DNA from: an uncultured Verrucomicrobiae bacterium | GTDB lineage: Bacteria > Verrucomicrobiota > Verrucomicrobiia > Chthoniobacterales > UBA10450 | Assembly (NCBI GenBank): GCA_963726745.1 | Contig: CAVSDR010000006.1 | Span: 960,001 to 1,024,000, forward strand | Reading direction: 5' to 3' | DNA length: 64,000 nt | Shown: positions 1 to 62,844 of the stretch, piece after piece | Position numbering within the stretch: the stretch's first letter is position 1 | Layout of the letters: the number at the start of each line of letters is the position of its first letter | Translations under genes and position numbers: made by a program | Notes under the pieces: model-generated | What the model was told of the DNA's origin: nothing | Databases searched by the model: none | Seen by the model: only the letters and a program-made list of their open reading frames with translations

Positions 1-1316
1 TGGCCAACCCGACCTACGCCGGCTTGCACGACAAGGCGCGGCGCTTCATCGAGGCGATCGCCGGGAAGAGCGCGGTGCAATTCGCGCACAAGGTCGAGGA
101 AGGCGTGAAAGGCCTGCTCGTCCCGAGCGTGATTTTCGAAGAGCTCGGCTTGCGTTACTACGGCCCGATCGACGGGCACGACATTCCGCTGCTCACCCGC
201 ACTTTCGAATTCCTGAAGACGCAGGACGAGCCAGTGCTGCTCCACATTCTCACGAAGAAGGGCAAAGGCTACGACCCCGCGTTGGCCAAGCCGGACAAGT
301 TCCACGGCCTCGGCAAATACAAGATCGAGAGCGGCGAAACCGCGGCTTCGCCTACGCCGACTTATTCGGAGTTGCTGGGGAAGACGCTGGCTAAATTTGC
401 CGACTCCAACAAGAACATCGTCACCATCACCGCGGCCATGCCCAGTGGCACCGGCCTTGGCCTTTTCCAGGCGCAACATCCCGATCGCTATTTCGACGTC
501 GGCATTGCCGAGGAACACGCGGCCCTCTTTGCCTGCGGTCTCGCGACCCAAGGCTTGAAGCCGTTCCTCACGATCTACTCCACCTTCATGCAGCGCGCTT
601 ATGACATGATCATTCACGACATCGCGCTGCAAAATTTGAACGTCGCGCTTTGCATGGATCGCGCCGGATTAAGCGGCGACGACGGTCCGACGCATCATGG
701 CCTGTTCGACATCGGCTACCTGCGCCACGTCCCTGGGATCGTGCACATGCAGCCGAAGGATGAGGACGAATTCATCGACATGCTCTGGACGATGGCGAAC
801 CACACCAGCGGCCCGATCGCGATTCGATACCCGCGCGGCGCCGGCACCGGCGCGCAGCCCAAACCCGAGCCGAAGCTGCTCGAGATCGGCAAGGCCGAAG
901 TCGTCCAACACGGCCGCGACGTCGCCATTTTCGGACTCGGAAACATGTTCGAAGTCGGCGAAGAAGCGGCGCGCAAACTCGAAGCGCAGGGCTATTCCGT
1001 CGCCTTGATCAACCCGCGCTGGATCAAGCCGCTCGATACCGGCACGCTCGAGTTCTTCGCCCGCGGCTGCCAGGTCGTGGCTACGCTCGAGGACCATGTC
1101 CTGCACAACGGTTTCGGCTGCGCAGTCATGGAACACCTCTCCGAAGCGCGCATCACCACGCCGGTCGTCCGCATCGGCTGGCCGGATCAATTCATCGAGC
1201 ACGGCACCATCCCGATCCTGCGCCAGAAGCATGGCCTAACGAGCGATGCGCTGGTGGAGAAGTTGCTGCCTCTGCTGCAGAAACCCACGCGCCAGCCGCA
1301 GCATAACGTTGCCTAG
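1..1316 (+). CDS. dxs: 1-deoxy-D-xylulose-5-phosphate synthase (5'-truncated by window edge)
   Basis: Motifs YYGPIDGHD, TKKGKGY, ITAAM, FDVGIAEEHA, IYSTFMQRAYD, DRAGLSGDDGPTHHG, IAIRYPRG; frame is open to the window start. Confidence 0.97.
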   Translation, partial: ANPTYAGLHDKARRFIEAIAGKSAVQFAHKVEEGVKGLLVPSVIFEELGLRYYGPIDGHDIPLLTRTFEFLKTQDEPVLLHILTKKGKGYDPALAKPDKFHGLGKYKIESGETAASPTPTYSELLGKTLAKFADSNKNIVTITAAMPSGTGLGLFQAQHPDRYFDVGIAEEHAALFACGLATQGLKPFLTIYSTFMQRAYDMIIHDIALQNLNVALCMDRAGLSGDDGPTHHGLFDIGYLRHVPGIVHMQPKDEDEFIDMLWTMANHTSGPIAIRYPRGAGTGAQPKPEPKLLEIGKAEVVQHGRDVAIFGLGNMFEVGEEAARKLEAQGYSVALINPRWIKPLDTGTLEFFARGCQVVATLEDHVLHNGFGCAVMEHLSEARITTPVVRIGWPDQFIEHGTIPILRQKHGLTSDALVEKLLPLLQKPTRQPQHNVA

Positions 1317-1406
1317 CGCCCCGGCTGCTCGAGTCTTCCAGGTCTGCGCGGGGCGCTTGGTTGCTCCTTGCGGGCGGGTTCATCTTCTCTCTCTTCGCAG
1401 AGCCAA

Positions 1407-2414
1407 ATGAGCGCGATCGAAGTCTCCGGCCTCTCCAAGGTCTATCGCACCTACCGCAAGGAAAGCGGGCTGCGCGGGGCGATCAAAGGGCTCGTCCGGC
1501 GAAAGTATGACGAGACGCGCGCGGCGGACAACGTCTCGTTTACGATCGAAGAAGGAGAATTAGTCGGCTTTCTCGGGCCAAATGGCGCGGGCAAGACGAC
1601 CACACTGAAAATTCTTTCCGGCTTGCTTAATCCGACTGCGGGCGAAGCGCGCGTGCTTGGCTTCATCCCATGGGAGCGGCGCAACGAAATGAAGCGCCAG
1701 TTCTCGCTCGTGATGGGGCAAAAAAACGCGCTCTGGTGGGATTTGCCGGCGCAGGAATCGCTCGAGCTAAATCGCGCAATCTACGGGATCGAGCGCGCGC
1801 GTTTCCAGAAAGTCGTCGGCGGCTTGAGCGAACTCCTGGAAGTAGGCGACAAGATGAACGTGATGGTGCGCGAGCTCTCGTTAGGCGAGCGCATGAAGAT
1901 GGAATTGATCTCGGCCTTGATCCATGAGCCGAAGGTCCTGTTCCTCGATGAACCGACTATCGGTCTCGACGTGGTCAGCCAGAAACGCGTGCGCGAGTTC
2001 CTGCGGGTTTACAACCAGGAGCACAAGATCGTGACCATGCTCACGAGCCATTACATGCAGGACATCGAGGAGCTGTGCGAGCGGGTGATCATCATCGATC
2101 ACGGGAAGATTTTCTTCGATGGCCCGCTCGAGCAGATCATCGATCGCTTCTCGATCGCGAAGATCATCTCGCTGACCTTCGAGGAAAGCGCCGCGCGCGA
2201 TTTCTCCGTCTTCGGCGAAGTGGTCGAGCAAACGCCGCTCTCGGTGCAGTTGAAAGTGCCGCGCGCGCAGGTCACGGAAGTGGCGCGGCAATTACTCGAC
2301 AATTGCAAGGTCACCGACATCAACGTGCAGGAGCTTCCGGTCGAGGAAGTGATCCGGCAGCTTTTCGGCGAGCGCTCCAGCCTGCAGAAAACGGCCGCGG
2401 CCGCGCCGGCTTAG
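1407..2414 (+). CDS. ABC transporter ATP-binding protein (ABC-2/DrrA-like); no permease adjacent
   Basis: Walker A GPNGAGKTT, signature LSLGERMK, Walker [13 protein letters not shown]-loop TSHYM; ATG at 1407. Confidence 0.92.
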   Translation: MSAIEVSGLSKVYRTYRKESGLRGAIKGLVRRKYDETRAADNVSFTIEEGELVGFLGPNGAGKTTTLKILSGLLNPTAGEARVLGFIPWERRNEMKRQFSLVMGQKNALWWDLPAQESLELNRAIYGIERARFQKVVGGLSELLEVGDKMNVMVRELSLGERMKMELISALIHEPKVLFLDEPTIGLDVVSQKRVREFLRVYNQEHKIVTMLTSHYMQDIEELCERVIIIDHGKIFFDGPLEQIIDRFSIAKIISLTFEESAARDFSVFGEVVEQTPLSVQLKVPRAQVTEVARQLLDNCKVTDINVQELPVEEVIRQLFGERSSLQKTAAAAPA

Positions 2415-2680
2415 AAACGTCTTACGAGAGCGCGCTTCAAGTCGTGCGCATACGCCGGGTTGACCTCGAATTGGAAGGTCGCCATTTCCGCGAGCGGCAC
2501 TTCTTCGGCGAACGGGATCGTGGTCACGTAGCCGGCGGAGATCAGGCTGTTCAAGGTATCGGCCACATCCTCCGCATCCATGTGCGAGCCCTCCTGGATT
2601 TCGCCGCCGAGGACGGCTTCGGCAAAGCCCATTGCCCGGACGACCGAGACCTCGCGGCCGGTGAGTTTGATCTGACGCAT
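2411..2680 (-). CDS. small hypothetical protein, possibly winged-helix-like
   Basis: 89-aa ORF with host-like codon usage; fills the gap between convergent genes. Confidence 0.6.
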   Translation of the reverse strand: MRQIKLTGREVSVVRAMGFAEAVLGGEIQEGSHMDAEDVADTLNSLISAGYVTTIPFAEEVPLAEMATFQFEVNPAYAHDLKRALVRRF

Positions 2681-2722
2681 GCGAAGCTTTTAGCAGCTTG
2701 CATACCCGAGCCGCCGGCGGCT

Positions 2723-3569
2723 TCAGGCGCCGTCGCGCGCGAGGTTTGGCAGAAGGTTCTCGCGCAAGGCGCTGGCAAAAGTCGGGAAGCGCGGTTCCCA
2801 ACCGAGCGCGCGCAGCCGGGCATTACGCACGCGTTTGTTGCTCGCGCCGCGTTTGCGCTCGCCGTCGACTGCTGCGGTCGGCGGCAGCTCGCGGGCTAAC
2901 TCTGCGGCGAGAATCGCGTAGGCCTCGCGCTGGAGGAGCGGCGCGTCGTCGGCCACATTGTAGATCTTGCCGGCTAAACCTCGGACCGCCAAAAGAACCA
3001 GTGCGGCCGCGATGTCGTCGCGATGCGCTTGATTGAGGAAGCGCGGGCTCGGATCCAGCGTGGCTTCCCGGGCGAGAAATTTCCGCAGCAAGGCCGAGCG
3101 CCCCGGGCCGTAAATCCCGGCGAGCCGCGCGACGATCCCGCCGCGCGCGAGCACGAACTCCTCCGTCTCGCGCAGAATTTTCCCTGTCTCCCGCTTCGGC
3201 TCGGCCGGGCTTTCCTCGTCCACCCATTCGCCCTCGCGCTGCGCGTAGACGCTCGTGCTGCTGGTGAAAAGAAGCAGCGCCTTGGGGAAAGCGGCCGCGA
3301 GATGGCGCGCGCCCTCGAGATAGACCTGCCGGTAAGCGTCCGCCCCGCCGCCGCCGGAGCTGGCGCAATGGATCACCACCTGCGAAATCACCGGGCGCCG
3401 GCGGCGCGGCCGCGAAGTCGACTGCACGCACCGGATAATTTTTAGCCGACAACTTCTGCGCCGATTCCTCGGAGGCGGTCCAGCCTTCCACTTCCCAGCC
3501 GCGCTCGTGAAACCGGTCTGCCGTGGCCGCGCCCACGTAGCCGCACCCGGCGATGAGCACGCGCGCCAT
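2723..3569 (-). CDS. NAD-dependent epimerase/dehydratase, YeeZ-like SDR (apparent frameshift near 3382)
   Basis: N-terminal VLIAGCGYVG Rossmann motif in ORF 2823..3569; VVIHCA, FTSSTSVY, RLAGIYGPGR, HRDD, YNVAD in ORF 2723..3427. Confidence 0.85.
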
Positions 3570-3575
3570 CGCTCG

Positions 3576-4302
3576 TTAGTCCGTCGCCGCCGCGAGCTCG
3601 ATTTCCTCGAAGGCGATCGGCCTGGGTCGCGCGCACCTGGTGCAGCCGGATGAGCTCGAGCAGCGCCAGGAAAGTGACGACAATTTCCACGCGCGAAGCC
3701 ATCGAGGCGAAAAGCTCGGAGAAGCGCAGCGGCACGCCATCGGCCACGCGCTCGAGGATCCAGGTGATCTTGTCCGAGACGGTGTAATGCTCGCCGAAAA
3801 TCTCGGAGAGATTTTCCCGCGCCTCGATCCGCTTGATCACGTTCTGGAAGGCATTGATCAGCTGGAAAATCCCGACCTCGCCCAGACGCAAAGGCGCCAG
3901 GGCCAGCTCCGGCGCGACCGGTTCGCGCAGGAAAATGCGCTCCTGCTCGAGCTGCCGGACCTGCAGTTGCCCGGCAGCTTCCTTGAACTTTTTGTATTCG
4001 ATCAACTGCCGGATGAGATCCCAGCGCGGATCGTCTTCCTCCACGTCTTCCTCGGGCGGCTGCTGCTCCACCGGCAAGAGGCTGCGGCTCTTGAGATAAA
4101 TCAGGTTCGCCGCCATGACCACGAACTCGCCCGCGACATCGATGTTCAGCTCCTTGAACGCCTGGAGATACTCGAGGTATTGCTTCGTGATCCGCTCGAG
4201 CGAGATCTCGTAGATGTCGAGCTCGTCGCGCTTGATCAGGTAAAGCAGCAGATCGAGCGGGCCCTCGAAAATCTCGAGCTTAACTTTGTAATCGCTCTCC
4301 AT
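3576..4302 (-). CDS. scpA: segregation/condensation protein A, kleisin (apparent frameshift near 3615)
   Basis: FEGPLDLLLYLI, YLKSRSLLP, LIEYKKFKEAA, VVTFLALLEL; C-terminal FEEIEL lies in the shifted frame, ending at TAA 3576-3578. Confidence 0.92.
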
Positions 4303-4328
4303 GCCTCTGCTGCCCGCGCGTGGGCCGC

Positions 4329-5444
4329 TTAAATTGCCTGCACTTTCCGGTGCACCCAGACGCTGTTCACGATCCCGAGACCGAACATGATCATGAGCAC
4401 GAAGGAGCCGCTGTAGCTGATCAACGGCAGCGGCACACCGGTGATCGGCAGCAGCGAGATGGTCATGCCAACGTTCTGGAAGATGTGGGTGAAAATGAGC
4501 GCAGTGATCCCAATCACGAGCAGCAGGCCGAATTGATCGCCCGCACAAAAAGCCACGAAGAGACAGGTGACTAGGAGGAGGGCAAAAGCGCCGAGAAGGA
4601 AGGAGCCGCCCACGAAGCCCCATTGCTCGCCGATGGCGGAGAAGATGTAGTCGTTATGCACCGCGGTCGCCGGGAGAAAGCCAAGCTCGATCTGGGTGTT
4701 CGGCGCCTTGAAACCTTTGCCCGCCCAGCCGCCGGAGCCGATGGCGATGAGCGATTGATTGATCGCCCAAGCCGAGCCCTGCCGGTCGATTTCGGGATTG
4801 ATGAACGCGGTGATGCGCTCTTTTTGATACGGCTTCAGGCCGAGGTTGATCGCCAGGGGCATGGCCGCGACCACCAGGAGAACGATGCAGGCGAGATAGC
4901 GCACCGGAATGCCGGCGACGAATAGCAGCGCGAGCATGACCGGCCCCCAGATGATGACCATGCCGAGATCCGGCTGCATTAAGATGAGCAGGCAGGGCGC
5001 GCCAGCGATCGCGCCGCAGAGCGCGAGCCGGAGCATGGGATGCATCTCGCGGAATTGGCTCAGAAAAAGAGCCAGCACCATGATGCCGGCGATGACCGCA
5101 AGCTGCGCCGGCTGGAAATTGATCGGCCCGAGATGGAGCCAACTGCGCGCGCCATAGACTTTCGTGCCGATGAACTTCGTCAGGATGAGAAAGAAAAGCC
5201 CGGCGAAATACATCGGGAGCGCGCCCCAGCGAACCCAGCGGTAGTCGATCAGGCTGGTGACCATGAAGACGACGAAGCCGACCGCGACCCAGTTGGCCTG
5301 CTTCCGCCAAAACTCCTGCGCGACCGGATCCGAGCGCATATAGGTGGCGCTGTAGACCGCGATCACGCCAAAGATCGCGAGCGCGAGCATGTTCACCAGC
5401 AGGAGCCAGTTCTGGCCGATGAGTTTTCGCAGAAACGGAGACAT
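4329..5444 (-). CDS. rodA: SEDS family peptidoglycan glycosyltransferase (RodA/FtsW)
   Basis: GARSWL, QPDLG, QSLIAIGSGG, HNDYIFS, LLPITGVPLPLISYSGS; multi-TM. Confidence 0.9.
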   Translation of the reverse strand: MSPFLRKLIGQNWLLLVNMLALAIFGVIAVYSATYMRSDPVAQEFWRKQANWVAVGFVVFMVTSLIDYRWVRWGALPMYFAGLFFLILTKFIGTKVYGARSWLHLGPINFQPAQLAVIAGIMVLALFLSQFREMHPMLRLALCGAIAGAPCLLILMQPDLGMVIIWGPVMLALLFVAGIPVRYLACIVLLVVAAMPLAINLGLKPYQKERITAFINPEIDRQGSAWAINQSLIAIGSGGWAGKGFKAPNTQIELGFLPATAVHNDYIFSAIGEQWGFVGGSFLLGAFALLLVTCLFVAFCAGDQFGLLLVIGITALIFTHIFQNVGMTISLLPITGVPLPLISYSGSFVLMIMFGLGIVNSVWVHRKVQAI

Positions 5445-5737
5445 GGGGTTCGAGCGTGCGCCGGTGGCTTCGATTCGCGAAGCCTCGGGAGCGCGCGAAT
5501 ATAGCCACATCGACTGCGGGCGTAAATGCCGGGCTTGGAAACTTCGTGCAAGGAGGCCGCGGCCGGCAGATTTAAGCGCCACCTTGTCGCGACGGAGTTG
5601 CCATGTTGCTGGCTAATTATCTGCACAGACAGATATTTACGCTGCAACGAAAACTATTTTACTCCGCTTCCTTGTCCTCCTTTTTCGCGGCCTTAAACTA
5701 CTCCGGTCACGATAGTATCACCGGAAAGGGAGTCCCA

Positions 5738-6193
5738 ATGGCTGCCAGAAAGACGAAACGAAAACTAGCGCACCCGAGATTGCCGATGCAGCGCCAGCTC
5801 AACCTCGAGCACGAGGGCGAGTACTTCGATCTTCGGGAAATCTTCGACCGCTTGAACGCGCGCTATTTTCGGAATCGTCTCCGCGGATACAAGGTCGTCT
5901 GGGGCCGTCGCCGGAAACGCCGGCCGAAGGAATACTTCGTCTTCGGCACGATCCAGGAAGAGGACCGCATCATCCGGATCAATCCGCGGCTCGATCAGCC
6001 GTTCGTCCCGCGCTGGTTCCTCGAATACATCCTTTATCACGAGATGCTGCACTCAGTAGTGCCGGATGAAATTTTCCCGAGCGGCCGGCGCCGGGTGCAC
6101 ACGGAAGAGTTCAATCGCCGCGAGGCGCTCTTCCCTGGCTATCGCCGCGCCAGGCGGTGGGAAGAAGACAATCTCGCGCGCTTCCTCCGTTAG
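5738..6193 (+). CDS. SprT-like / M48-like zinc metalloprotease domain protein
   Basis: HEMLH (HExxH) plus downstream H in RRVHTEEF; FDRLNARYF; basic N-terminus. Confidence 0.8.
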   Translation: MAARKTKRKLAHPRLPMQRQLNLEHEGEYFDLREIFDRLNARYFRNRLRGYKVVWGRRRKRRPKEYFVFGTIQEEDRIIRINPRLDQPFVPRWFLEYILYHEMLHSVVPDEIFPSGRRRVHTEEFNRREALFPGYRRARRWEEDNLARFLR

Positions 6194-6229
6194 CGTCGCT
6201 CCGCTGCGGGCGTGAGCCCGGTCCGGACC

Positions 6230-7105
6230 TCATACGGCGAGGGTGTCGTTGCTACGTTCTTTTTGATGAGGTACCAAAGGGTTGTCGCGAGCAGCAGGGA
6301 GATCACCTTTGCGCGCCAATTCCTCAGGAGGATTTTCTTCATAGCTTCCGTGGAGCAGGAGTTCGCTCAGCCGTTTCCGGAATGTTTCCGGGGTAAAATT
6401 CCGCTCGATCCGTCGGCGATGGCAGATGGAAATGCCGCCGGTTTCTTCCGAGACGATGATCGCGATCGCGTCCGACTCCTCGGTAATCCCGAGCCCGGCG
6501 CGGTGCCGCAGGCCGAGACTGCGGTCGAGCGTTTCGCGCTGGCTCACCGGGAAAATGCAGGCCGCCGCGGCGATCCGGCCATTGCGCATGACCACGCCGC
6601 CATCGTGCAGCGCGCTCTTTGGGTGAAACAAGGTCAGCAAAAGCTCGACGGAAAAGACGGAGTCGAGCTCGACCCCAGTTTCCTCGTAGACGCGGATCGC
6701 GGTATCACGCTCGATCGCGATCAGCGCGCCGAATTGCTTGTTCGCCAGCTGCGTGACCGCCTCGCCGAGGTCGTGCACCGTCTCGCGTTTCTCACTCGTT
6801 AGGGAAAAGATCGGATGCCCGCCCAGCTCGGCCAGGCCGCGGCGCAGTTCCGGTTGGAAAATCACCACCAGCGCGACCGCGAGGAAGACCGAAAAGCTGC
6901 GGATGATCCAGCCGATCACGGTCAGGTTCAGCAGCTGCGAAATCAGGGTGAGCGTGAGGAAGACAATCGCCAGGCCGGTGAGCACCTTCGCGCCGCGGGT
7001 CCCGCGGAAATAGAGATAGCCGTAGTAGATCCCAACGCTCAGCAGGATGATCTCGAAAAGGCCGCGCCATTTTTCGAGCCAGAGCTGGAGGAGCTGTTGA
7101 ATCAT
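6230..7105 (-). CDS. cdaA: diadenylate cyclase (CdaA/DacA type)
   Basis: Three N-terminal TMs, FQPELRRGL, LHDGG (DGA-type motif), GLRHRA (RHR), VSEETG. Confidence 0.93.
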   Translation of the reverse strand: MIQQLLQLWLEKWRGLFEIILLSVGIYYGYLYFRGTRGAKVLTGLAIVFLTLTLISQLLNLTVIGWIIRSFSVFLAVALVVIFQPELRRGLAELGGHPIFSLTSEKRETVHDLGEAVTQLANKQFGALIAIERDTAIRVYEETGVELDSVFSVELLLTLFHPKSALHDGGVVMRNGRIAAAACIFPVSQRETLDRSLGLRHRAGLGITEESDAIAIIVSEETGGISICHRRRIERNFTPETFRKRLSELLLHGSYEENPPEELARKGDLPAARDNPLVPHQKERSNDTLAV

Positions 7106-7956
7106 ACGACGGGTTCGAGAAGGGCTTCAGTCACACGAAGTGCGGCCGCGTTCGGTTGGACGTCGTGCACCCGCAGGATATTCGCGCCGCGTTCACGCAG
7201 CAGCGCCGTCAGGGCAACGGTCGGCGCGAGGCGATCTTCTGCCGCGGCCAGGTTGTCGGCTATTTTCGCGAGGAAGGATTTCCGCGACACGCCTACCACC
7301 AGCGGACGATCGGCCACGCGTAATTCCGCGAGGTGACGCAGGAGGCGCAGGTTGTGTTTCAACGTTTTCCCGAAGCCGATCCCCGGATCAAACGCAATCG
7401 CCATCGGATCGATGCCGCAGTCTAGGGCGCGGGCATATTCTTGTCGAAAAAATTCCCGCACTTCCGCGATCACGTCGTCATACTGCGGCGCGTCCTGCAT
7501 CGTCCGCGGCGTTCCTTGCATGTGCATGAGGACAAACGCCGCGCCGCTTTCCGCCACGGTCGCGAGCATCTCGCTGTCTCCGCGACCGCCGGTCACGTCG
7601 TTCACGATCGTCGCGCCGGCGGCGACGGCCGCGCGCGCGACCGCGGCCTTCGAAGTGTCGATCGAAAGGAGCGCATCGGTTTCCGCGCGCAGTCGTTCGA
7701 TCACCGGAAGCACGCGGCGCAATTCCTCCGCTTCCGCCACTGGTTCCGCGCCCGGGCGGGTCGACTCGCCGCCGATGTCGAGGATGCGCGCGCCTGCCTG
7801 CGCCATGCGCACGCCCTGCGCGACCGCGCGCTCGTGATCGAAGAATTGTCCGCCATCGGAGAACGAATCCGGGGTGACATTGAGCACGCCCATGAGCAGC
7901 GCGCTGGACGTAAGGTCGAGCATCGCGCCGTCTACTTTCCAAAGCACGGGCGTCAT
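7102..7956 (-). CDS. folP: dihydropteroate synthase
   Basis: MGVLNVTPDSFSDGG, IGGESTRPGA, SIDTSKA, DPGIGFGK, GVSRKSF, RVHDV. Confidence 0.96.
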   Translation of the reverse strand: MTPVLWKVDGAMLDLTSSALLMGVLNVTPDSFSDGGQFFDHERAVAQGVRMAQAGARILDIGGESTRPGAEPVAEAEELRRVLPVIERLRAETDALLSIDTSKAAVARAAVAAGATIVNDVTGGRGDSEMLATVAESGAAFVLMHMQGTPRTMQDAPQYDDVIAEVREFFRQEYARALDCGIDPMAIAFDPGIGFGKTLKHNLRLLRHLAELRVADRPLVVGVSRKSFLAKIADNLAAAEDRLAPTVALTALLRERGANILRVHDVQPNAAALRVTEALLEPVV

Positions 7957-54054: not shown

Positions 54055-54060
54055 CGAGCG

Positions 54061-55235: not shown

Positions 55236-55859
55236 ATGGCCGAACGAATCCGACCGATCGAACAGATGCTCGAACTTAACGAAGGCGAAGCCGGTTCCAC
55301 GGAGCATCTCGACTCGCAGGTCCAGAAGGCGCAGGAGCAATTGCTCGTGCTCAAGCGCCAGCAGGAGCAGATCGAGAAACAAAAGCGCGAGCTCGAGGAA
55401 TTGAGCCGCCGCCAGGAAGAGCTGGAGCGCGGCCGCGCGGAAATGACCGACAAGCTCACGCGCTCGCTCGTCGTCCTGGAGCGCGAAGCCTATGACTCGC
55501 AGAAGAAGCTCGAGCAGATTCGCGCGACCCGCGAGAGCTTCGAGCAACACCTCGAACTGCTCGAGGCGATCGATCCGAAGAGCTGGAACCAGGCGGACCT
55601 GCACAAGGAATTAAGTCGCTCCCTAAGCACGGTGGACGATGCGCGCACCGAGTTTAGCCAGCAACGCAGCCGCCTCTCCGCGACCACGAGCGACGACCAT
55701 GGCGAAGTGGCGCTCCCAGACGCGGCCTCCGACTCCTCGTTAGGCGGGAGCAACAATTTCGTCCAGTGGATGCAGATCGGTTTTGCCTTCACCTTGCCGC
55801 TGATCGTCCTCGGGCTGATCGCGCTCCTGCTCGTCTTCCTCCTCGTCCCGCGCGCCTAA
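55236..55859 (+). CDS. coiled-coil protein with C-terminal TM
   Basis: E/Q/K/R-rich heptads; C-terminal hydrophobic helix. Confidence 0.8.
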   Translation: MAERIRPIEQMLELNEGEAGSTEHLDSQVQKAQEQLLVLKRQQEQIEKQKRELEELSRRQEELERGRAEMTDKLTRSLVVLEREAYDSQKKLEQIRATRESFEQHLELLEAIDPKSWNQADLHKELSRSLSTVDDARTEFSQQRSRLSATTSDDHGEVALPDAASDSSLGGSNNFVQWMQIGFAFTLPLIVLGLIALLLVFLLVPRA

Positions 55860-55862
55860 TCG

Positions 55863-56228
55863 ATGCCCCGCCGACCTTCCAAAAGCGGAACTCCGCTGAC
55901 CGCCAAGCAGGAAGAGCTGGCCCGGCGCGAGCAAAAGCTGCGCGATGAAATGCAGCAGCTCGAGCGCGAGATCGCCGAGGCCCCGAAGCGCGCCGCGGAA
56001 AAGTCCCGCCGCCAGCGCGAGCAAATACACGAGCGCGCGAGCGCCGGCGGCAGCCGGCTGGATGTCTCGATCGCGCTAAACGACAAACGCTTTCTCGATG
56101 GCGGCCGCTACAGCGGCAAGCGCGGTGCCTTGCGCAAGGAACGTCGCGAAGGCCGCTTCGTTTTCCTGGTGCTGGTGATCGCGCTGGTGGTCGCGGTGCT
56201 GTGGTTGATGAGCAACCTGCGCTTCTAG
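55863..56228 (+). CDS. coiled-coil protein with C-terminal TM
   Basis: Heptad N-terminus, basic patch, terminal TM FVFLVLVIALVVAVLWLM. Confidence 0.75.
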   Translation: MPRRPSKSGTPLTAKQEELARREQKLRDEMQQLEREIAEAPKRAAEKSRRQREQIHERASAGGSRLDVSIALNDKRFLDGGRYSGKRGALRKERREGRFVFLVLVIALVVAVLWLMSNLRF

Positions 56229-56236
56229 CGCGCACC

Positions 56237-56518
56237 ATGGCCGACTTCGACGTGGCCGACGTCGCGCGTCTCGCGCGCCTGCAGCTGACCCCGGAGGAGA
56301 CGGCGCTTTTCCAGGGACAACTCGCGCGCGTCCTGCGCTACGCCGACGAGCTGGCGGGGATCGACGTGACCGGCGTGGAAGCGGCGGCTCATTCCATTCC
56401 AATGTTTGATGTCACCCGCGCGGACGAAGCACGGCCGGGCTTCAGCGCGGAGGAAGCGCTGGCTAATGCGCCGCGGCAGGCGAACCACCTTTTCCTGGTG
56501 ACCAAGGTGGTCGAATGA
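56237..56518 (+). CDS. gatC: Asp/Glu-tRNA amidotransferase subunit C
   Basis: VARLARL, L..IDV.GVE, R.DE, ALANAP, F.V.KV. Confidence 0.92.
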   Translation: MADFDVADVARLARLQLTPEETALFQGQLARVLRYADELAGIDVTGVEAAAHSIPMFDVTRADEARPGFSAEEALANAPRQANHLFLVTKVVE

Positions 56519-57950
56519 CGCCATCGATCGCGGAAGCGCGCGCACTTCTGCAGGCGGGCGAAGTTTCCTCGCGCGAATTGCTCGAGACGCTGCATGCGCG
56601 GATCGAGGAACTCGATCCCCAGCTCGGTGCTTATCTTTCGCGCGACCTGCCCGCGGCGCTTCGCGAGGCGGAGCGCGCCGATCTTAGCCAGCCACTTGGC
56701 GGCGTGCCGATCGCGCTCAAGGACAACCTCAATCTCCAGGGCCAGCCCTGCACTTGCGCCTCGCGCATGCTGGCAAATTTCCAATCGCCCTACGACGCCA
56801 CGGTTGTGCAAAAGCTCCGCACGGCGGGCGCGATCCCTTTCGGCAAAACCAATCTCGACGAGTTTGCGATGGGTTCCTCGACCGAGAACTCGAGCGTGCG
56901 CCCGACGTTGAATCCGTGGGATCGCACTCGCGTGGCCGGCGGCTCGAGCGGCGGTTCGGCGGTCGCAGTCGCGGCGGGGCTGGCGATTGGCTGCGCTCGG
57001 CACGGACACCGGAGGCTCGGTGCGACAGCCGGCGGCCTTTAACGGCATCGTCGGCCTGAAGCCAACCTACGGCCGCGTCTCGCGTTACGGCGTGGTCGCT
57101 TACGCTTCTTCGCTCGACCAGGTGGGACCGATGACGCGCGACGTGCGCGATGCCGCGCTCGTGCTGAACGCGATTGCCGGACACGATCCGCACGATTCTA
57201 CTTCGCTGCGGGAAACAGCCGGCGACTTCACCGCGCTCCTCGGCCGCGATTTGCAGGGCGTGCGCCTGGGCGTGGCCCGCGAGCATGCGCAACCCGGGAC
57301 CGATCCGCAGGTGCAGGCGGCGGTGGAGGCCGCGGCGCGGCAATTGGAGTCGTTAGGCGCGGAGCTCGTGGAAATTTCCCTGCCGCATACCGAGGTCGAC
57401 GGTGGCGACCTATTACCTCCTCGCGACCGCCGAGGCGTCGGCTAATCTCGCGCGCTACGATGGCGTGCGTTACGGCCATCGCGCGGAGCAGCCGCGCGAT
57501 CTCCTGGAGCATTACACGCGCACGCGCGCGGAAGGGTTCGGCGCGGAAGTGAAGCGCCGCATTCTCCTCGGCACCTATGTGCTCAGCGCCGGCTATTACG
57601 ACGCCTACTACCTGCGCGCGCAAAAGGTGCGCACGCTCATCCGGCAGGATTTCGCGCGCGCCTTCGAGCAGGTGGATGCGATCCTCTCGCCGACTTCGCC
57701 GGTCCCGGCGTTCAAGCTCGGGGCGCACACGGCCGATCCGCTGCAGCTTTATTTAGCCGACATTTTCACCGTGCCGGCGAATCTCACCGGGCTGCCCGCG
57801 CTGAGCGTGCCGTGCGGTTTCGCGGAAGTGGAGGGAGCGCGCCTGCCGATCGGCCTGCAACTTATGGGGGACGCGCTCGACGAAGCGCGCCTCTTGCAAA
57901 TCGCCTACGCCTACGAACAAGCGACGGATTGGCATCGCGCCCGGCCATGA
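56515..57950 (+). CDS. gatA: Asp/Glu-tRNA amidotransferase subunit A (apparent frameshifts near 56985 and 57398)
   Basis: [55 protein letters not shown]. Confidence 0.94.
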
Positions 57951-59197
57951 GGAGCCCGCGTCATTTCCGGCTGCTCGCGGCGCTCTTCGCGCTCGTGGTC
58001 ATGACCTTTTCCGCGATCGCAATTGCGAATGCGCTCCTGCCCGGAAAGACGATCAAGGACTACGAGCTCTGGCATGCCACCGGCCAGCAGATGCTCCACG
58101 GCGAGGCGATCTACCCGGAGAAACGCGGCGCGAAATTCGACTTCATGTATCCGCCGGCCGCAGCCGCGTTGCTCGCGCCGGTGAGCTTGCTCGGGCGCAC
58201 CGGTGTGGTCGTGGCGTTGGCGGCGATCACAGCAGCCGCGTGGCTTGCGAGCATCCTGCTCTCGGTGCGCCTGGCGACAGGCAAATGGGGGCGGCAACAC
58301 TTCCTGCTCTACGCGCTCCCGAGCCTGCTCGTGATCGTTTACGTCTGGAGCAATTTCCACATCGGCCAGCCGAGCCTCGTGCTCCTCGCGCTGCTGCTGG
58401 GCGCGTTTCTCGCGCTGCAAACTTGCCGGCAAATTTTAGCCGGCGCGCTCATCGCGCTCGCCGCGGGGATCAAGGCCTTCCCGTTTGTCGCGATCGTTTA
58501 TCTGCTTTATCGCCGCTACTGGATCGCGGCTGCCTCGCTCCTGCTCGCGCTCGTGCTGCTGCTTTTCGCGTTGCCCGCGGCCTTCCGCGGAATCGATGGC
58601 GCGCGCGCCGATCTTGTCCGCTGGACCGAGGGGATGCTCTTGAAATACGACGAGAAAGGCGTGGCCCAGCGCCCGGGCCGGAGCAATTCCTGGAAGAACC
58701 AAAGCATCTTCGGCGTGGCCAATCGCCTCCTGCGGCACATCGATGCGGACGAGCAATACAACCGCCACGTGCCGATCTACGTGAACCTGGCCGACCTGAG
58801 TTTCACCGCGGTGAACCGCATCGTCGTTGGCACCGGTTTGCTTCTTGGACTGGTCTATCTCGCGGTCATGCCGCGACGCGATCGGCGCACCCGCGAGAGC
58901 GATGCGCTGGAGTTTGCGCTCTTCCTGCTGCTCCTGCTCATGTTCACGCCGCTGGCCTTTGGTTACCTCTTCGCGACACTGCTTTATCCGTTTACCGTAG
59001 TCGTGGCGCGCCTGCTCGCGCGGCCGCAGCGTTCGCTCTGGATCGCCGCAGGAATTGCCGTCGCGCTGCTCGCGCTCACGCTGCCCTTCCAGCGCGGGGC
59101 GCAACTTTACGGGAACACCTTCCTCGCCACGCTCACCCTTTTCCTCGGCCTGGCTTGGGAGCTTTGGCGGCTGAAGCGCACCCCGCCCGCGGCCTAA
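57947..59197 (+). CDS. GT87 (DUF2029) polyprenol-phosphate-dependent glycosyltransferase
   Basis: KDY, FMYPP, GQ, IKAFP, NQS; multi-TM; ATGA overlap with gatA. Confidence 0.85.
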
Positions 59198-59904
59198 CGA
59201 CTCCGCCGCCGGAAGACTGCCGCGAGCCAGCGGAGCGCGAAGATCGCGGCCACCCGGAAGCTCATCTTCGAGGCCCCGCGCGCGCGGTCGCGGAAAGCGA
59301 TTGGGATTTCGATTACGCGCAGCTTGGGCCGGCCATGGACGATGATCTCGAAGGCTATTTTGAAACCGGTCGCGGCGGAGGCGAGTGCGAGGAGCGACTC
59401 GCGCCGGATGGCGAAGAAGCCACACATGGAATCGTGCACGCCGGTCAGCGGGTAAGCCATACCGGCGGCCACGCGCGACATCGCCCGCCGAGGCAACGGC
59501 CAGCCTGGCGTGGTCCCGCCGCGGACATAGCGGCTGCCGATAACCATGTCCGCGCGGGCTTCGGTGATTGGTCGGATTAACTCCGGGATGCGCTCCGGCG
59601 GATGGCTCAAGTCGGCATCCATGACCACGAGCAAGTCGCCGCTCGCAGCCTTTGCCCCGGCGATGACCGCGCCAGCCAAGCCGAGCGTGGGCGCGTGGCG
59701 CTCGAGCAAGCGCACGGCGTGCGCCGCTCCCAGGGCGCGGACGCGGGCTTGCGTGCCGTCAGTTGAGCCATCGTCGACCACGATGATCTCGCGGCAGTCC
59801 GGCATCGCCTGGAGAATTTGCCTAACGAGCGGTTTGACGTTCTCCGCCTCGTTCAAGGTCGGCACGATGACCGAGAGCGTTTGCGCGGCGATAGGAGGCG
59901 GCAC
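59194..59904 (-). CDS. polyprenol monophosphomannose synthase-like GT2
   Basis: VIVPTLNEAEN, VVDDGSTDGT, MDADLSHPP, GSRYV.GG, F.DR..G.SKM; GTG start inferred. Confidence 0.9.
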   Translation of the reverse strand: MPPPIAAQTLSVIVPTLNEAENVKPLVRQILQAMPDCREIIVVDDGSTDGTQARVRALGAAHAVRLLERHAPTLGLAGAVIAGAKAASGDLLVVMDADLSHPPERIPELIRPITEARADMVIGSRYVRGGTTPGWPLPRRAMSRVAAGMAYPLTGVHDSMCGFFAIRRESLLALASAATGFKIAFEIIVHGRPKLRVIEIPIAFRDRARGASKMSFRVAAIFALRWLAAVFRRRSR

Positions 59905-59912
59905 AGTAAGCG

Positions 59913-59985
59913 AGCCGAAGACGGGACTCGAACCCGTGACCTGCTGATTACGAATCAGCTGCTCTACCAACTGAGCTACTTCGGC
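59913..59985 (-). tRNA. tRNA-Thr (anticodon CGT), CCA not encoded
   Basis: GCCGAAG acceptor stem, TAGCTCAGTTGGTAGAGC D arm, GCTGA-TTCGTAA-TCAGC anticodon arm, GGTTCGAGTCC T arm. Confidence 0.96.
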
Positions 59986-60055
59986 GAATGCGGGAGCCGA
60001 AGATGGCACCCACGGCAGAGACGGGCAAGCGGAAGCTCGCCTGCCAGCTCGCTGT

Positions 60056-61045
60056 CTATTTCGGCAGCAACTCGCCCACGAGGCCTTGTTCTTCCTTCAA
60101 CTCGGCGACGGAAGCGTCAATCTTCCCGCGGCTGAATTCGTCGAGCTTCACGCCTTGGACGATCTCCCATTTGCCATCGGCCGTGGTGCGGATCGGGAAG
60201 GAAGCGATCAGGCCCTGCTCGATTCCGTAGCTGCCATCGGAGCAAACCGCGACGCTGTGCCAATCGCCCTGCGCCGTTGGGTTGGTGAGGCTGCGGACGG
60301 TGTCGATGATCGCGTTCGCGGCGGAACCGGCGGAGGAAAGGCCGCGCGCCTTGATGATCGCCGCGCCGCGTTTCTGCACGTCGGGGATGAAGGTTTCCTT
60401 GAGCCAGCTCGCGTCCGTGATCACGTCGGTCGCCGGTTTGCCACCGATCTTGGCGTTGGTGAAATCAGGATACTGCGTGGCGGAATGATTGCCCCAGATG
60501 GTCATGTTCGTGACCTCGGTCACGTCCACGCCGGCCTTCTGCGCGAGCTGCGCCTTGGCGCGGTTTTCATCGAGCCGGGTCATGGCAAACCAGCGGTCGC
60601 CCGGGATGGAGCGGGCGTTGTTCATCGCGATCAGGCAATTGGTGTTGCAGGGATTCCCGATCACGAGGATGCGCACATCCTTGGCCGCGTTCGCCTCGAT
60701 CGCCTGGCCCTGGCCGATGAAGATCTTGCCGTTGATCCCGAGCAGGTCGCCGCGTTCCATCCCCGCTTTCCGCGGGACACTGCCGACGAGCAGGGCCCAA
60801 TTCACGTCCTTGAAGCCTTCGTTCAGGTCGGAGGTGGCGACGATTCCCTTAAGCAGCGGGAAGGCGCAATCGTCCAGCTCCATGACCACGCCCTTGAGCG
60901 CGTCGAGCGCCGGCGGAATCTCGATCAAGTTCAACTGCACCGGCTGGTCGGGGCCGAACATGGCGCCGGAAGCGACCCGGAAAAGGAGGGAGTAACCGAT
61001 TTGCCCGGCAGCGCCGGTAATCGCGACTTTGATCGGAGATTTCAT
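60056..61045 (-). CDS. mdh: malate dehydrogenase
   Basis: [46 protein letters not shown]. Confidence 0.97.
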
Positions 61046-61053
61046 CTGACTTC

Positions 61054-61151
61054 TTTAGCCACGGATGGACCCGGATGAAACCCGGATTTTCGAAAGAAGA
61101 GCCCCTTCTGCCTTCCATCCGTGTTTCATCCGTGTTCGTCCGTGGCCTAAA
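61054..61151. repeat. inverted-repeat element built from ~10-bp tandem units (CACGGATG/CATCCGTG)
   Basis: TTTAGCCACGGATGGACCCGGATGAAACCCGGAT ... ATCCGTGTTTCATCCGTGTTCGTCCGTGGCCTAAA. Confidence 0.85.
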
Positions 61152-62844
61152 CTCTCCCGGTCTTCTCGAGGAGCGACCGCACTAGCTTCATCCGCTCCTT
61201 GAGCGCGCGGCGCGTGCGGAGGCGCTTCATGGTGAAGCGGAGGCGCTGGCTCCAGTTCGAATCGGCCGCGGTCCCGGGGACGTTGAAACGCTCGGTCCCG
61301 CCGAGCAGGTCGGTGATCATGACGATGGCCATCCAGGAATTGCTCCGGAAAAGGCCGCGCAAGCTTGCCGGGTAAAAGTCGCGCTCGTAGTCCGGCGTTC
61401 TCGCCGAGGGCTTCGATCCCCGCAAAGCGCGCGATCTTCTCGAGATCGCCGCGGGCTTGTTCGCGCGTCGGGCTTTCCGGATCGAAAGCTTCGTCCCACA
61501 GCGCGCGCATCGGCTTGTGATCGTGCGTAGCGTAGGTCGCGACCGAGAGCCGCTCGTATTCCTCGCCCGGGGACGATCCGGCCATCCGGCGTGCTCTCCC
61601 ACTGCGGAATCTTGAAGCCGGCTAATGCCTAACGACTGCAAGCTTGGCCGCACGTAAGGCGGCACCGTGCCGAGGTCCTCGCCCACGAGCCGCGTGCTCC
61701 CGGCGGCTTCCAGGGCCATGCGCAAATATTCTTCGCCCTCGCGGCGATTCGCCGCGGCGCGGTCCGGCGCTTCGTCATCGCGCGGTGCGAAGCCGGGGGC
61801 GCGGCCGCCGGTTTTTTCCAGCATCTCTTCGCACGACAACGGGAGAAACTCGGGATTCCGCTGCGGCCGCCAGGGGAAGGCGTAGATCCGGTAGAAGCCG
61901 AGCACGTGATCGATCCGGAAGACGTGAAAGATCCGCCGCACCCCGCGCACGCGCTGCCGCCACCAGGCGAAGTCATGCGCCCGCATTGCCTCCCAATTAT
62001 ACAGCGGGATGCCCCAGTTTTGCCCCCACTTCTGGGTGAACTCGTCGTCCTTGAAGTAAGGCTCCGGGGGCGCGCCGCCCGACCAATCGAGCTTAAAACG
62101 ATCGGGCCAGGAGTAGACGTCGGCGCTGTAGTAGCTCACGCCAAAAGGGATGTCGCCCATGAGTGCGACGCCACGCTCGTCGGCATAATTTTTCACTGCG
62201 ATCCACTGGTCGTAGGCGAGCCATTGGACGTAGCGGAAAAATTGCGCGCGCTCCGCGAAACGCTCCTGCGCTGCGGCCGGCTCCGCTTTCAGCCAGGCAT
62301 GCGCCGCTTCCACCGACTGGTGCTCTTCCCGCCAAAGATCCCAGGCTTCGCTCTCGCCGTTCTCCTCCATGAGCACGCGGAAAAAGACATAAGGCTCGAG
62401 CCAGGAGGCTTCCTTTTCGCAGAAAGCAGTGAAGCTCTCGGCGGCATCCGCGCGCCCTTGGAAACGGGCGAAAGCTTTCTCGAGCAAGGCGCGCTTGAGC
62501 TTCCGCACCTCCCGGTAGCTCACTGGTCCCGTGCGCAATTTAGCCAGCGAGATGGCGGCCAGAACCTCATCGTAATCCTCCTGCGTGAGGTCCTCTGGTG
62601 AGCCCGGGGCAAGATGTAAGGTCAGCGGCTCGATCGCAGTCGCGCTGATCGCATTGTAAGGGCTGTTGTCCCCGCCGGTTTCGTTGATCGGCAGGAGCTG
62701 CACGAGCTTGAACCCAATACTCGCGGCCCAGTCGACGAACTGCCGGAGCGCCGCGAGGTCGCCAATCCCGAGATCGTCCTCCGTGCGCAAGGCGAAGAGC
62801 GGAGTGAGCACGCCGGCTATTTTTTGGTCAGGGGAGAGGGTCAT
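61147..62844 (-). CDS. malQ: 4-alpha-glucanotransferase, GH77 (two compensating apparent frameshifts near 61622 and 61400)
   Basis: GIGD, QLLPIN, SPY, GDIP.GV, GAPP, GQNWG.P.Y, RIDH.LG, GEDLG, THD in shifted frame, NVPGT...NW. Confidence 0.92.
   Translation of the reverse strand: MTLSPDQKIAGVLTPLFALRTEDDLGIGDLAALRQFVDWAASIGFKLVQLLPINETGGDNSPYNAISATAIEPLTLHLAPGSPEDLTQEDYDEVLAAISLAKLRTGPVSYREVRKLKRALLEKAFARFQGRADAAESFTAFCEKEASWLEPYVFFRVLMEENGESEAWDLWREEHQSVEAAHAWLKAEPAAAQERFAERAQFFRYVQWLAYDQWIAVKNYADERGVALMGDIPFGVSYYSADVYSWPDRFKLDWSGGAPPEPYFKDDEFTQKWGQNWGIPLYNWEAMRAHDFAWWRQRVRGVRRIFHVFRIDHVLGFYRIYAFPWRPQRNPEFLPLSCEEMLEKTGGRAPGFAPRDDEAPDRAAANRREGEEYLRMALEAAGSTRLVGEDLGTVPPYVRPSLQSLGISRLQDSAVGEHAGWPDRPRARNTSGSRSRPTLRTITSRCARCGTKLSIRKARRANKPAAISRRSRALRGSKPSARTPDYERDFYPASLRGLFRSNSWMAIVMITDLLGGTERFNVPGTAADSNWSQRLRFTMKRLRTRRALKERMKLVRSLLEKTGRV

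Follow-up and report, generated by a model that had tools for sequence, protein, structure and literature searches.

GYYGGCTAA is a strongly over-represented word imposed on the coding sequence of a Verrucomicrobiae bacterium

Results

The nonamer GYYGGCTAA, which we call motif 2, is a real and strongly over-represented signal imposed on coding sequence. A pattern search of the window, that is, the whole stretch of 64,000 nt that was analysed, returned 28 exact copies, 15 on the plus strand and 13 on the minus strand, and every coordinate listed in the initial annotation proved exact. That annotation had guessed an expectation of about 2; dinucleotide-preserving shuffles of the window gave a mean of 1.15 (sd 1.04, maximum 5), and at least 28 copies were obtained in 0 of 100 shuffles. 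Besides the copies discussed below, GCTGGCTAA was found on the plus strand at 386..394, 5608..5616, 10671..10679, 27031..27039 and 36556..36564 and on the minus strand at 44805..44813, 50227..50235, 56684..56692 and 62540..62548. The form GCCGGCTAA was found at 2969..2977 and 39643..39651 (plus) and at 20346..20354 (minus), and GTCGGCTAA at 8591..8599, 17667..17675 and 44327..44335 (plus) and at 3442..3450, 43863..43871 and 53676..53684 (minus).

The window also holds 29 copies of a second word, motif 1 (GCCTAACGA). Taken together, exact copies of both words amount to one per 1.12 kb, in agreement with the density first noted, and the large share of CTAA/TTAG tetramers ascribed to them was borne out: GGCTAA and GCCTAA supply 80 of the 112 tetramers in the window and 3,583 of 6,289 genome-wide.

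The host is a soil bacterium. Its whole genome (G000, 3.4 Mb) contains 1,139 copies of GYYGGCTAA. The nonamer forms the conserved core of a longer, degenerate word of 18 nt, S-A-W-N-K-Y-G-Y-Y-G-G-C-T-A-A-W-W-Y. The profile of this word found 4,463 sites, about 1.3 per kb, compared with 79 in the reversed genome used as the control. In the window, 108 profile sites scored above 12 (380..63494; 53 plus, 55 minus), and these include 25 of the 28 exact copies; the top score belongs to GCTGGCTAA at 54742..54750 (plus). The A/T run described after TAA was confirmed genome-wide, with A or T at the next three bases in 84%, 68% and 62% of copies. Apart from a single additional T, the word can also be read as a quasi-dyad, AANTTGCC|GGC(T)AANTT.

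Plus and minus strands had equal counts of sites throughout, by contig and by 100-kb bin, also across the GC-skew switch in C2, and no strand or replichore bias was seen. Density was even (variance/mean of counts per 10 kb, 1.04), a search for arrays of sites found none, and neighbours were rarer than expected within about 250 bp. Sites are sparser in low-GC islands, and the biggest stretches free of them are low-GC and contain a C5 methylase with a Z1 protein, an OLD-type nuclease with a UvrD helicase, glycosyltransferase clusters and ORFans.

We then consider the relation of motif 2 to codons. The ORF calls are crude and leave about 25% of the genome uncovered; by these calls, 793 copies lie in ORFs and 346 of the 1,139 lie beyond them. 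The codons said to be forced, GCT-AAW or TTA-GCC, are indeed those of the main phases: 343 of the 793 in-ORF copies have the opposite-strand phase TTA-GCC-RRC and 294 have xxG-YYG-GCT-AAW, while AGC-CRR accounts for 101 and the two remaining sense phases for 55. The stop-creating phase is rare (P0/P0 273, P1/P1 47, P2/P2 10). As a consequence for codon choice, motif-2 sites span 2.2% of codons and contain 27.6% of TTA codons.

The concentration of most copies in one codon phase would suit an origin of the excess in codon, dicodon or peptide usage, for example of Leu-Ala-Asn/Lys. In ORFs, however, 770 exact copies were observed. Five runs of synonymous shuffling left 40-71, and four runs of dicodon-chain resampling, in which the protein was preserved, left 67-94; the corresponding values for profile sites were 3,245, 234-255 and 288-328. 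About a tenfold excess thus outlives both protein-preserving procedures, and the dicodon explanation raised in the initial annotation therefore fails. Moreover, the word and its flanks are identical in the sense, antisense, other-phase and no-ORF classes, and relatives use other codons for the same peptides. The usage reading is already contradicted by these data, and we consider it hardly credible. Motif 2 acts at the DNA level, as is seen from its flanks, the lack of strand bias, the avoidance of the stop phase and the resampling.

Within the genus, the enrichment of motif 2 is patchy, and its distribution is polyphyletic. Strong enrichment of GYYGGCTAAW was confined to G000, G011 and G015, with a weak excess in G017 and G009. 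In grouping, G000 falls with G013, which is poor in the word, and away from G011, which is rich in it. Variant forms occur in two further genomes: GAKCGYGYYGKCT numbers 1,260 in G036, against 5 in its control and 119 in G000, and GTCGGCWAWTTT numbers 179 in G011, against 2 in its control. The word itself is rarely shared at orthologous positions, where it was found in 0/43 cases in G002, 0/45 in G013, 1/36 in G015, 1/30 in G017 and 2/25 in G011.

BLAST extraction illustrates these differences. At 50849..50857 (minus) G000 has GCCGGCTAA and five relatives have GCCGGCCGG, GCCGGCGGG, GCCGAGCGG or TCCGCCCGG. The GCTGGCTAA at 55654..55662 (minus) is present also at the orthologous position of G015 and G017. 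At 56458..56466 (plus) GCTGGCTAA entails a changed amino acid, because the relatives have GCTGCAAAA or GCTGCAGAA. The GTCGGCTAA at 57437..57445 (plus) is common to G015, the others having the synonymous GGCCAAC or GGCGAAT, and in the GTCGGCTAA at 57753..57761 (minus) Leu is encoded by TTA, compared with CTC or CTG in relatives. Motif 2 arose mostly through third-codon-position changes on near-match sequences, and sometimes through amino-acid changes. Derived changes towards motif 2 numbered 98 against 9, a count that is biased by site selection and is no independent evidence.

On average, motif-2 sites differ from relatives at 3.2 of 18 columns; therefore a single systematic basecalling error, suggested earlier as a possible source of all copies, cannot explain them. 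The caution expressed about the GCCGGCTAA in malQ (61617..61625, plus) was justified. Alignment with relatives showed that the indel is real, G000 being one base longer than 4/4 aligned relatives (5/5 in the BLAST extraction), and this copy is doubtful because it contains one of three G000-specific single-base insertions within about 230 nt. This copy and the thin public-read cover of the window are what would speak for motif 2 as a whole being an assembly or basecalling artefact. Against it, in addition to the 3.2 differing columns and the avoidance of the stop-creating phase, gaps not a multiple of three occur in only 3/40 multiply aligned sites, all three in poorly aligned stretches; related words are enriched in the independent fragmented assemblies G011 (590 contigs) and G036 (20 contigs fetched, none as long as 35 kb); and the GCCGGCTAA at 58436..58444 (minus) is unchanged in a short contig of the public run X1. 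We see next to no likelihood in an artefact.

The columns changed relative to other species were +1 (19), +4 (14), -11 (10), -8 (8), and -9, +3 and +5 (7 each). These changes bear on the idea that motif 2 has no function and results from a bias of mutation or repair tied to sequence, for example that of a methyltransferase coupled to very-short-patch-type repair, which has been discussed for HIP1. After the 5' flank, GGCTAA (514) vastly outnumbers GGCCAA (8) and GGCGAA (16), the genome has a C5 cytosine methylase, and such systems are lineage-specific, all of which would fit. In contrast, the changes are scattered over many columns, several of those at +1 are G-to-T and not deamination, the word covers 18 nt and is both degenerate and non-palindromic, and the methylase sits in a word-free island. 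We therefore regard such a bias as quite unlikely.

Motif 2 is independent of motif 1. The CTAA said to be common to both was borne out, and both hybrids GTCGGCTAACGAG were located, each as GTCGGCTAA followed by CGAG (12233..12241, minus; 53624..53632, plus). Genome-wide there are 240 GGCTAACGA hybrids, of which 92 have GYY upstream; the flanks typical of motif 2 are weakly present in hybrids, 38% having A at -10. Such features would suit a single bipartite system with the motifs as its half-sites, or a single profile spelt in two ways. However, within 400 bp of the 4,463 motif-2 sites the distances of CCTAACGA (1,514 copies) were flat whichever way the two words were oriented to each other, with 26-63 per 40-bp bin where about 40 were expected, and no preferred spacing or orientation was found in this range; the sole peak consisted of 11 overlapping hybrids at distance 0. 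Information lies 3' of CTAA in motif 1 (GCCTAACGA-G-T) and 5' in motif 2 (S-A-W-N-K-Y-G-Y-Y-G-G). The species distributions also differ: GCCTAACGA is enriched in 19/19 genomes of the genus, and in G013, for example, motif 1 occurs 2,291 times and motif 2 occurs 38 times, compared with 1,312 and 958 in G000. On these three grounds we reject the half-sites proposed at first, and a common system or profile is very improbable. The other initial proposal, two dialects of one signal, is right only in a loose sense, given the opposite placement of information around the shared CTAA. The motifs are separate words; reading both would take a pair of readers or a pair of reading modes.

Discussion

As the best explanation we tentatively propose that motif 2 may be a species-level uptake or 'self' tag, similar to DUS or USS, for a sequence-specific DNA-binding protein; this could well be so, at somewhat less than an even chance. 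DNA fragments bearing the word would be preferentially taken up or retained; alleles that create the word would then spread by homologous recombination (molecular drive), and each lineage would drift towards whatever its own reader prefers. That the distribution is polyphyletic suggests a reader, or a reader specificity, that changes or moves from one lineage to another. The enrichment, DNA-level signal, even spread, lineage behaviour, uptake genes and DUS parallels speak for an uptake tag. Against it, motif 2 is far more degenerate than DUS and USS cores, and all of its statistical features fit an array for another DNA-binding protein equally well.

G000 has ComEC (849-aa open frame), DprA, three secretin hits, a PilB-like ATPase, PilC-like proteins and about 10 prepilins; in control searches ComEC and DprA matched in 10 and 11 of 14 genomes, and both are common in non-competent bacteria. 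No reader was found. Next to dprA, G000, G015 and G002 have a minor-pilin and DUF7305 cassette that G011, G013 and G017 lack; it therefore does not track the word. The sole ComEA-like ORF scored 29.3 bits (cut-off 27), and its frame seems disrupted past one HhH motif.

A somewhat unlikely alternative is that the sites are an array, kept by per-site selection, to which an abundant protein binds sequence-specifically without any part in uptake; it could be a nucleoid-organising protein, or the sites could be a 'self' mark read by a defence or repair system. The quasi-dyad suits a dimeric binder, and the even density, the short-range spacing, the depletion in defence-gene islands, and the patchy distribution with variant forms, which fits a mobile or fast-evolving reader, are all compatible with it. 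On the other hand, no candidate protein was found, and DNA outside genes is not preferred, as the counts beyond ORF calls indicate. We know of no nucleoid or defence system that writes thousands of 18-nt coding sites at a cost in rare codons and amino acids.

Among known systems, a close parallel to an uptake tag is the DNA uptake sequence (DUS) of Neisseriaceae, whose reader is the minor pilin ComP (PMC3630211, PMC3868556). DUS are described as having lineage dialects that follow phylogeny and a stop codon in one frame, and two dialects may share one genome, as in Simonsiella muelleri (PMC3630211). Both DUS and motif 2 are non-palindromic, lie within coding DNA on both strands at about 1 per kb, have a stop codon in one frame and lineage dialects, and coexist with a second word; the DUS spelling GCCGTCTGAA even recalls GCCGGCTAA. 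In contrast, DUS belongs to another phylum and is an exact 10-12-mer, whereas motif 2 is an 18-nt degenerate profile that departs from phylogeny, is stacked on an unrelated genus-wide word and has no ComP-like reader found.

The USS is built from a core plus an AT-tract, and in both USS and motif 2 a conserved core precedes an A/T-rich flank, many copies lie within genes in permissive frames, and lineage subtypes occur. This uptake signal sequence is that of Pasteurellaceae (PMC1626085). Its core and taxon are not those of motif 2, in which no helically phased second A/T tract was seen out to +17.

HIP1 (GCGATCGC) of cyanobacteria, recently linked to transformation efficiency (PMC5861425, PMC4390886, bioRxiv 10.1101/2024.09.10.611283), is likewise a hyper-abundant in-gene word kept at the DNA level, with quasi-regular spacing and a long obscure function. 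HIP1 is, however, a perfect palindrome that is linked with orphan methyltransferases and conserved phylum-wide, whereas motif 2 is asymmetric and limited to a few species.

Motif 1 resembles motif 2 in CTAA, in copy number and in its dispersal through genes. It differs in that GCCTAACGA matches the 5' end of integron attC sites, as seen at the attC starts of the G022 cassette array (GCCTAACGAG...GGTTAGGC). The attC core consensus is RYYYAAC, and the C that it demands follows motif 2 in only 12% of copies genome-wide. In the G022 array, motif 2 lies between the attC sites, not inside them.

Copy number and shape of the second word

A pattern search of the window returned 28 copies of the second word, GYYGGCTAA, at exactly the coordinates and on exactly the strands that the initial annotation had listed. 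The G+C content of the window, which lies at C6:960001-1024000, is 61-66%; its dinucleotide-preserving shuffles contained 1.15 copies on average, and 0 of 100 shuffles reached 28. In the whole source genome (G000; 3.41 Mb in 7 contigs) the word occurs 1,139 times, with about equal numbers on the two strands in every contig. The contexts of all these copies keep S at 6 bases and A (81%) at 5 bases upstream, K-Y directly 5' of the first G, and W-W-W 3' of TAA. When the 5' flank alone was fixed, the hexamer that followed was GGCTAA in 514 cases, GCCTAA in 186, GGCAAA in 179, GGCTAT in 175 and GTCTAA in 121, while GGCCAA and GGCGAA followed in just 8 and 16.

Iterative refinement converged on an 18-nt profile, S-A(92%)-W-N-K-Y-G-Y-Y-G-G(64%)-C(82%)-T(81%)-A(86%)-A(68%)-W-T-Y, with an information content of 18.9 bits. 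At a score above 12 this profile has 4,463 sites in G000 (1.31 per kb) versus 79 in the reversed genome used as control, and at a stricter cut 3,834 versus 40. The window holds 108 of the sites scoring above 12, and 25 of the 28 exact copies are among them. The word is degenerate, and even its most frequent exact 14-mer has just 26 copies in G000. It is built as a quasi-dyad, AANTTGCC|GGC(T)AANTT, carrying one additional T. This T, at +1, is present in 81%, and the symmetric variant GGCAAA is in the minority (179 against 514 for GGCTAA). A perfect palindrome of the HIP1 type can be dismissed because of this extra T.

A signal at the level of DNA

With crude ORF calls, 793 copies of GYYGGCTAA lie inside ORFs and 346 outside. 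Those inside are read as xxG-YYG-GCT-AAW (294), as TTA-GCC-RRC on the opposite strand (343), as AGC-CRR (101) or in other phases (55). The flanks are alike in all these classes of phase and orientation and in the uncalled DNA. A GC3-phase test, which is independent of the ORF calls, placed 273 copies in P0/P0, 47 in P1/P1 and 10 in P2/P2, the phase that creates a stop codon; the remainder were ambiguous or mixed.

We then compared the real genome with genomes resampled with the proteins fixed. There were 770 exact copies in ORFs, compared to 40-71 after synonymous shuffling (5 runs) and 67-94 after dicodon-chain resampling (4 runs). For the profile sites in ORFs the real number was 3,245, and the same two procedures gave 234-255 (5 runs) and 288-328 (4 runs). 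The excess is thus about tenfold over both procedures, and therefore dicodon usage, which the initial annotation had considered as a source of the enrichment, does not remove it. That is, the second word is a DNA-level signal, and a codon or peptide effect does not account for its excess. Its sites span 2.2% of codons and take in 27.6% of all TTA codons, and at least one site is present in 1,647 of the 2,183 called ORFs. The idea of hidden stops ("ambush") and that of rare-codon regulation were both rejected, as each leaves unexplained an 18-nt context that is alike in both orientations. A dispersed repeat of the REP/MITE type was rejected because the flanks beyond 18 nt are unrelated and most copies lie in ORFs.

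Relation to the genus-wide word and to attC cores

The main CTAA context classes in G000 are the first, genus-wide word GCCTAACGA (1,312) and GGCTAA[AT] (1,235), and there are 240 hybrids of the form GGCTAACGA. The information lies 3' of CTAA in the first word and 5' of it in the second. The distances and orientations between the two words are flat to 400 bp, so that no preferred spacing or orientation exists within this range. The species ranges also differ; GCCTAACGA is enriched in 19 of the 19 genomes sampled from the genus and in 0 of 12 further families of the order. The initial annotation had suggested that the two words might be half-sites of a bipartite recognition system. From the opposite position of the information, the flat spacing and the different species distribution, we conclude that they are two words and not half-sites of one.

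The core consensus of integron attC sites is RYYYAAC for R'' and GTTRRRY for R'. In the compared genome G022, the region C7:93000-97732 is an integron cassette array with 7 attC sites that start with GCCTAACGA or GCCTAACGT, and at least 6 of the 7 visibly finish in GGTTAGGC, about 90-150 nt downstream. These starts match the first word, which confirms that the first word is the attC core of this order. The second word was rejected as an attC core, because C follows TAA in just 12% of its copies and because the two GGCTAA copies in the G022 array sit between attC sites.

Distribution along the genome

Each full 100-kb bin of G000 contains 110-151 profile sites, and the variance/mean ratio per 10 kb is 1.04. 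The two strands bear equal numbers of sites in each contig and each 100-kb bin, with no shift where the GC skew changes sign in contig C2. The orientation thus does not follow the direction of replication, and a polar sequence of the Chi or KOPS type is ruled out. Arrays or special repeat elements were also rejected, as the maximum is 7 sites per kb and such windows are fewer than a Poisson distribution predicts. Two site-pair distances, 74 and 118 bp, recur, and the sequences involved are unrelated.

Pairs of sites closer than about 250 bp are rarer than expected. At distances of 30-240 bp there are 449 same-strand pairs versus about 634 expected, and 416 opposite-strand pairs versus about 586 expected; the deficit is strongest for same-strand pairs below 90 bp (95 versus 199 expected). 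Despite this short-range avoidance, there are 105 overlapping palindromic pairs, namely 75 of GGCTAA(W)TTAGCC and 30 of TTAGCCGGCTAA.

The density of sites is positively correlated with GC (r = 0.42). The biggest site-free gaps are 4-9 kb long, are mostly low in GC and mostly lack the first word as well. The gene content of 11 of the 12 gaps fetched (41 ORFs) was analyzed by family search, which found a C5 cytosine methylase and a Z1-domain protein, an OLD-type ATPase-TOPRIM nuclease and a UvrD helicase, and glycosyltransferase and sugar-modifying genes, in addition to many ORFs without a family. The nuclease lies beside the helicase, a pair that is Gabija-like by domain content. The largest gaps without either word are the low-GC islands at C5:210172-219285, C2:1-7579 and C6:428350-432450, which together carry the C5 methylase/Z1, nuclease/helicase, and glycosyltransferase plus methyltransferase clusters. 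We infer that the low-GC islands are recently acquired DNA. A further stretch with almost no motif sites, C2:218716-230183, contains a seemingly split ThiC, with one ORF for the ThiC-associated domain and a separate ORF whose match to the radical-SAM ThiC profile is confined to positions 200-270.

Species range and variant forms

Among the genus genomes, GYYGGCTAAW occurs 958 times in G000, 394 times in G011, 254 times in G015, 135 times in G017 and 90 times in G009, and the other 14 have at most about twice the control counts. Among 121 genomes drawn from across the family, which did not include G011, the degenerate pattern stood out only in G000 (1,225 versus 16 in the control), in G036 of another genus (269 versus 19) and in G015 (107 versus 25). 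All statements on G036 rest on that one genome, which is flagged as unpublished, and G001, G008, G032 and G043 entered by counts only. An unrooted tree of six taxa (six loci, 11,262 columns) joined G000 with the word-poor G013 at a support of 100 and placed G011 with G002 and the pair of G015 and G017, itself supported at 100. Since G000 groups with a word-poor genome, the enrichment is polyphyletic, or else it was repeatedly lost.

When the profile was refined on a 242-kb sample of G036 and a 97-kb sample of G011, the core G-Y-Y-G-G-C-T was kept and the weights of the flanks differed. Counts in whole genomes bore this out. GAKCGYGYYGKCT was counted 1,260 times in G036 (control 5), 42 in G011, 119 in G000 (control 11), 40 in G015, 29 in G002 and 22 in G013, and GTCGGCWAWTTT 62, 179 (control 2), 117 (control 2), 35, 16 and 14 times in the same six genomes. 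A zero-order ranking of k-mers in the relatives' samples gave mostly CG-rich codon words. Words based on CGATCG or TCGCGA (CGCGATCG, TCGCGATC, ATCGCGAT) reached 6-15 times the zero-order expectation in the samples of G002, G011, G013, G015, G017 and G036. They may reflect nothing more than codon structure, or else another word that these relatives have in common.

Origin of the sites

The DNA identity of the relatives to G000 is about 70-85%. We compared orthologous loci for the window positions 1-20000 and 50001-64000; 56 of the 108 sites could be aligned to at least one relative. A site scoring above 12 was present at the orthologous position in 0 of 43 aligned cases in G002, 0 of 45 in G013, 1 of 36 in G015, 1 of 30 in G017 and 2 of 25 in G011. 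Of the first 13 exact copies to be aligned, the one at 55654 is also present in G015 and G017, and the one at 57437 in G015.

At 33 sites with at least two ungapped orthologs, G000 differs from the majority of the relatives in a mean of 3.24 of the 18 columns. Changes toward the word were counted at 98 versus 9, a tally that is biased by the choice of sites. The initial annotation had looked to ortholog alignments for synonymous changes that converge on the word. Third codon positions (+1, +4, -11, -8) account for most of the differences, and 15 of the 27 sites in called ORFs have no amino-acid change, as in the copy at 57753, where a Leu codon is TTA in G000 and CTC or CTG in the relatives; the other 12 have at least one amino-acid change. 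It is improbable that the word is a by-product of repair or mutation, because many columns change and several of the +1 changes are G-to-T. A hotspot of m5C deamination was rejected because several of the ancestral +1 bases are G.

Possible artefacts and the copy in malQ

The evidence argues against an artefact of assembly or basecalling. One systematic basecalling error, which the initial annotation had raised, is made unlikely by the codon-phase bias and by differences from the relatives that span multiple columns. Related words are enriched in independent, fragmented assemblies (G011 in 590 contigs; 20 fetched G036 contigs all below 35 kb), and gaps of a length not divisible by three occurred at just 3 of 40 multiply aligned sites, all in poorly aligned stretches. 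Public reads gave one study with part of the window (word share 0.11). The contigs of that run, X1, are short and thin, and the one displayed record that spans a copy of the word has the copy at 58436 unchanged; the region of the malQ indels is uncovered.

In the malQ-like gene on the minus strand (window 61150-61760), G000 has three single-base insertions within about 230 nt compared to G011, G015, G017 and G002. As a result, about 75 codons of an ORF of 565 aa, the conserved THDH stretch among them, are read out of frame, and the frame is regained after the third insertion. Either the gene is in a compensated, pseudogene-like state or the assembly is wrong locally. Because one of the insertions lies inside the copy at 61617 and the region has no public reads, this copy is doubtful, and the caution expressed about it in the initial annotation was justified.

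Possible function and meaning of the word

We tentatively take the second word to be an uptake tag or self tag, a possibility that we regard as real and short of probable. DNA bearing the word would be taken up preferentially, and recombination would then spread the alleles that bear it. We commit to this reading on the strength of the likeness to DUS/USS tags and of the competence-type genes present in G000. Like those tags, the word has a high, even and strand-symmetric density, is written into genes beyond codon preference, contains a stop codon in one frame, is depleted in islands and has variant forms. The part of the DUS literature consulted (PMC3630211) describes dialects, two of which can coexist in a single genome, and a constraint by the stop codon. 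In contrast, the distribution of the second word speaks against an uptake tag, as dialects should follow the phylogeny of the group whereas its enrichment is polyphyletic in the six-taxon tree. A further point against it is that every statistic of the word would be explained equally well if it were read by another kind of DNA-binding protein, a reading that we consider rather unlikely.

We speculate, with considerable doubt, that these soil Verrucomicrobia possess a two-tier code of self-recognition, in which the genus-wide word, also the integron attC core, is joined by a fast-evolving second tag. The reader of this tag would move or be re-tuned between lineages, thousands of new sites would arise within congeneric divergence time, and each species would have its own variant form.

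The full profile and true copy number of the second word, its independence from the first word and the failure of the bipartite reading are new here, as are the few shared orthologous sites, the polyphyletic distribution and the variant forms of G011 and G036. Our full-text literature search found no paper on uptake-like words in Verrucomicrobia and nothing relevant on natural competence in Udaeobacter or on uptake words in metagenome-assembled genomes. To our knowledge, uptake tags are established experimentally in only two proteobacterial families. The case described here is that of a second word at the level of the species, independent of the genus-wide one and lying on top of it, in a soil lineage that is abundant and uncultured; its variant forms are not congruent with phylogeny. 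As an uptake tag, it would mean that sequence-biased DNA exchange is wider than thought and can be layered and that its specificity can turn over quickly, and metagenomes could then be used to test how recombination barriers evolve among soil bacteria. If the word serves no uptake system, whatever reads it would belong to a hitherto undescribed kind of DNA-binding system. The profile tells the DNA of the G000 species from that of close relatives, which helps to bin sequences and to recognize foreign DNA.

Candidate genes for a reader

G000 encodes ComEC, DprA, secretins, a PilB-like ATPase, PilC-like proteins and about 10 prepilins. Genes of the ComEC, DprA, pilus and secretin types are common in non-competent bacteria as well. 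Loci with candidate minor pilins lie at C6:622-626 kb, C3:584-587 kb, C5:155-159 kb and C3:1,032-1,035 kb. We sought a reader of the word through one candidate, a pilin cassette beside dprA, by its presence or absence in six genomes. Located downstream of topA-dprA (G000 C6:623400-626150), this cassette combines an ORF of 232 aa with a prepilin-like ORF and the gene of a DUF7305 protein. G000, G015 and G002 carry it, and G011, G013 and G017 cleanly lack it. Its presence does not track the second word, which speaks against an uptake tag.

The sole ComEA-like ORF of G000 (C2:230151-230438, 95 aa) is a marginal match and looks disrupted. It has one good helix-hairpin-helix motif followed by an Arg/Ser-rich tail, which resembles the result of a frameshift or truncation. 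A paralogous pair of a prepilin and a DUF7305 protein is located at C3:584-587 kb of G000.
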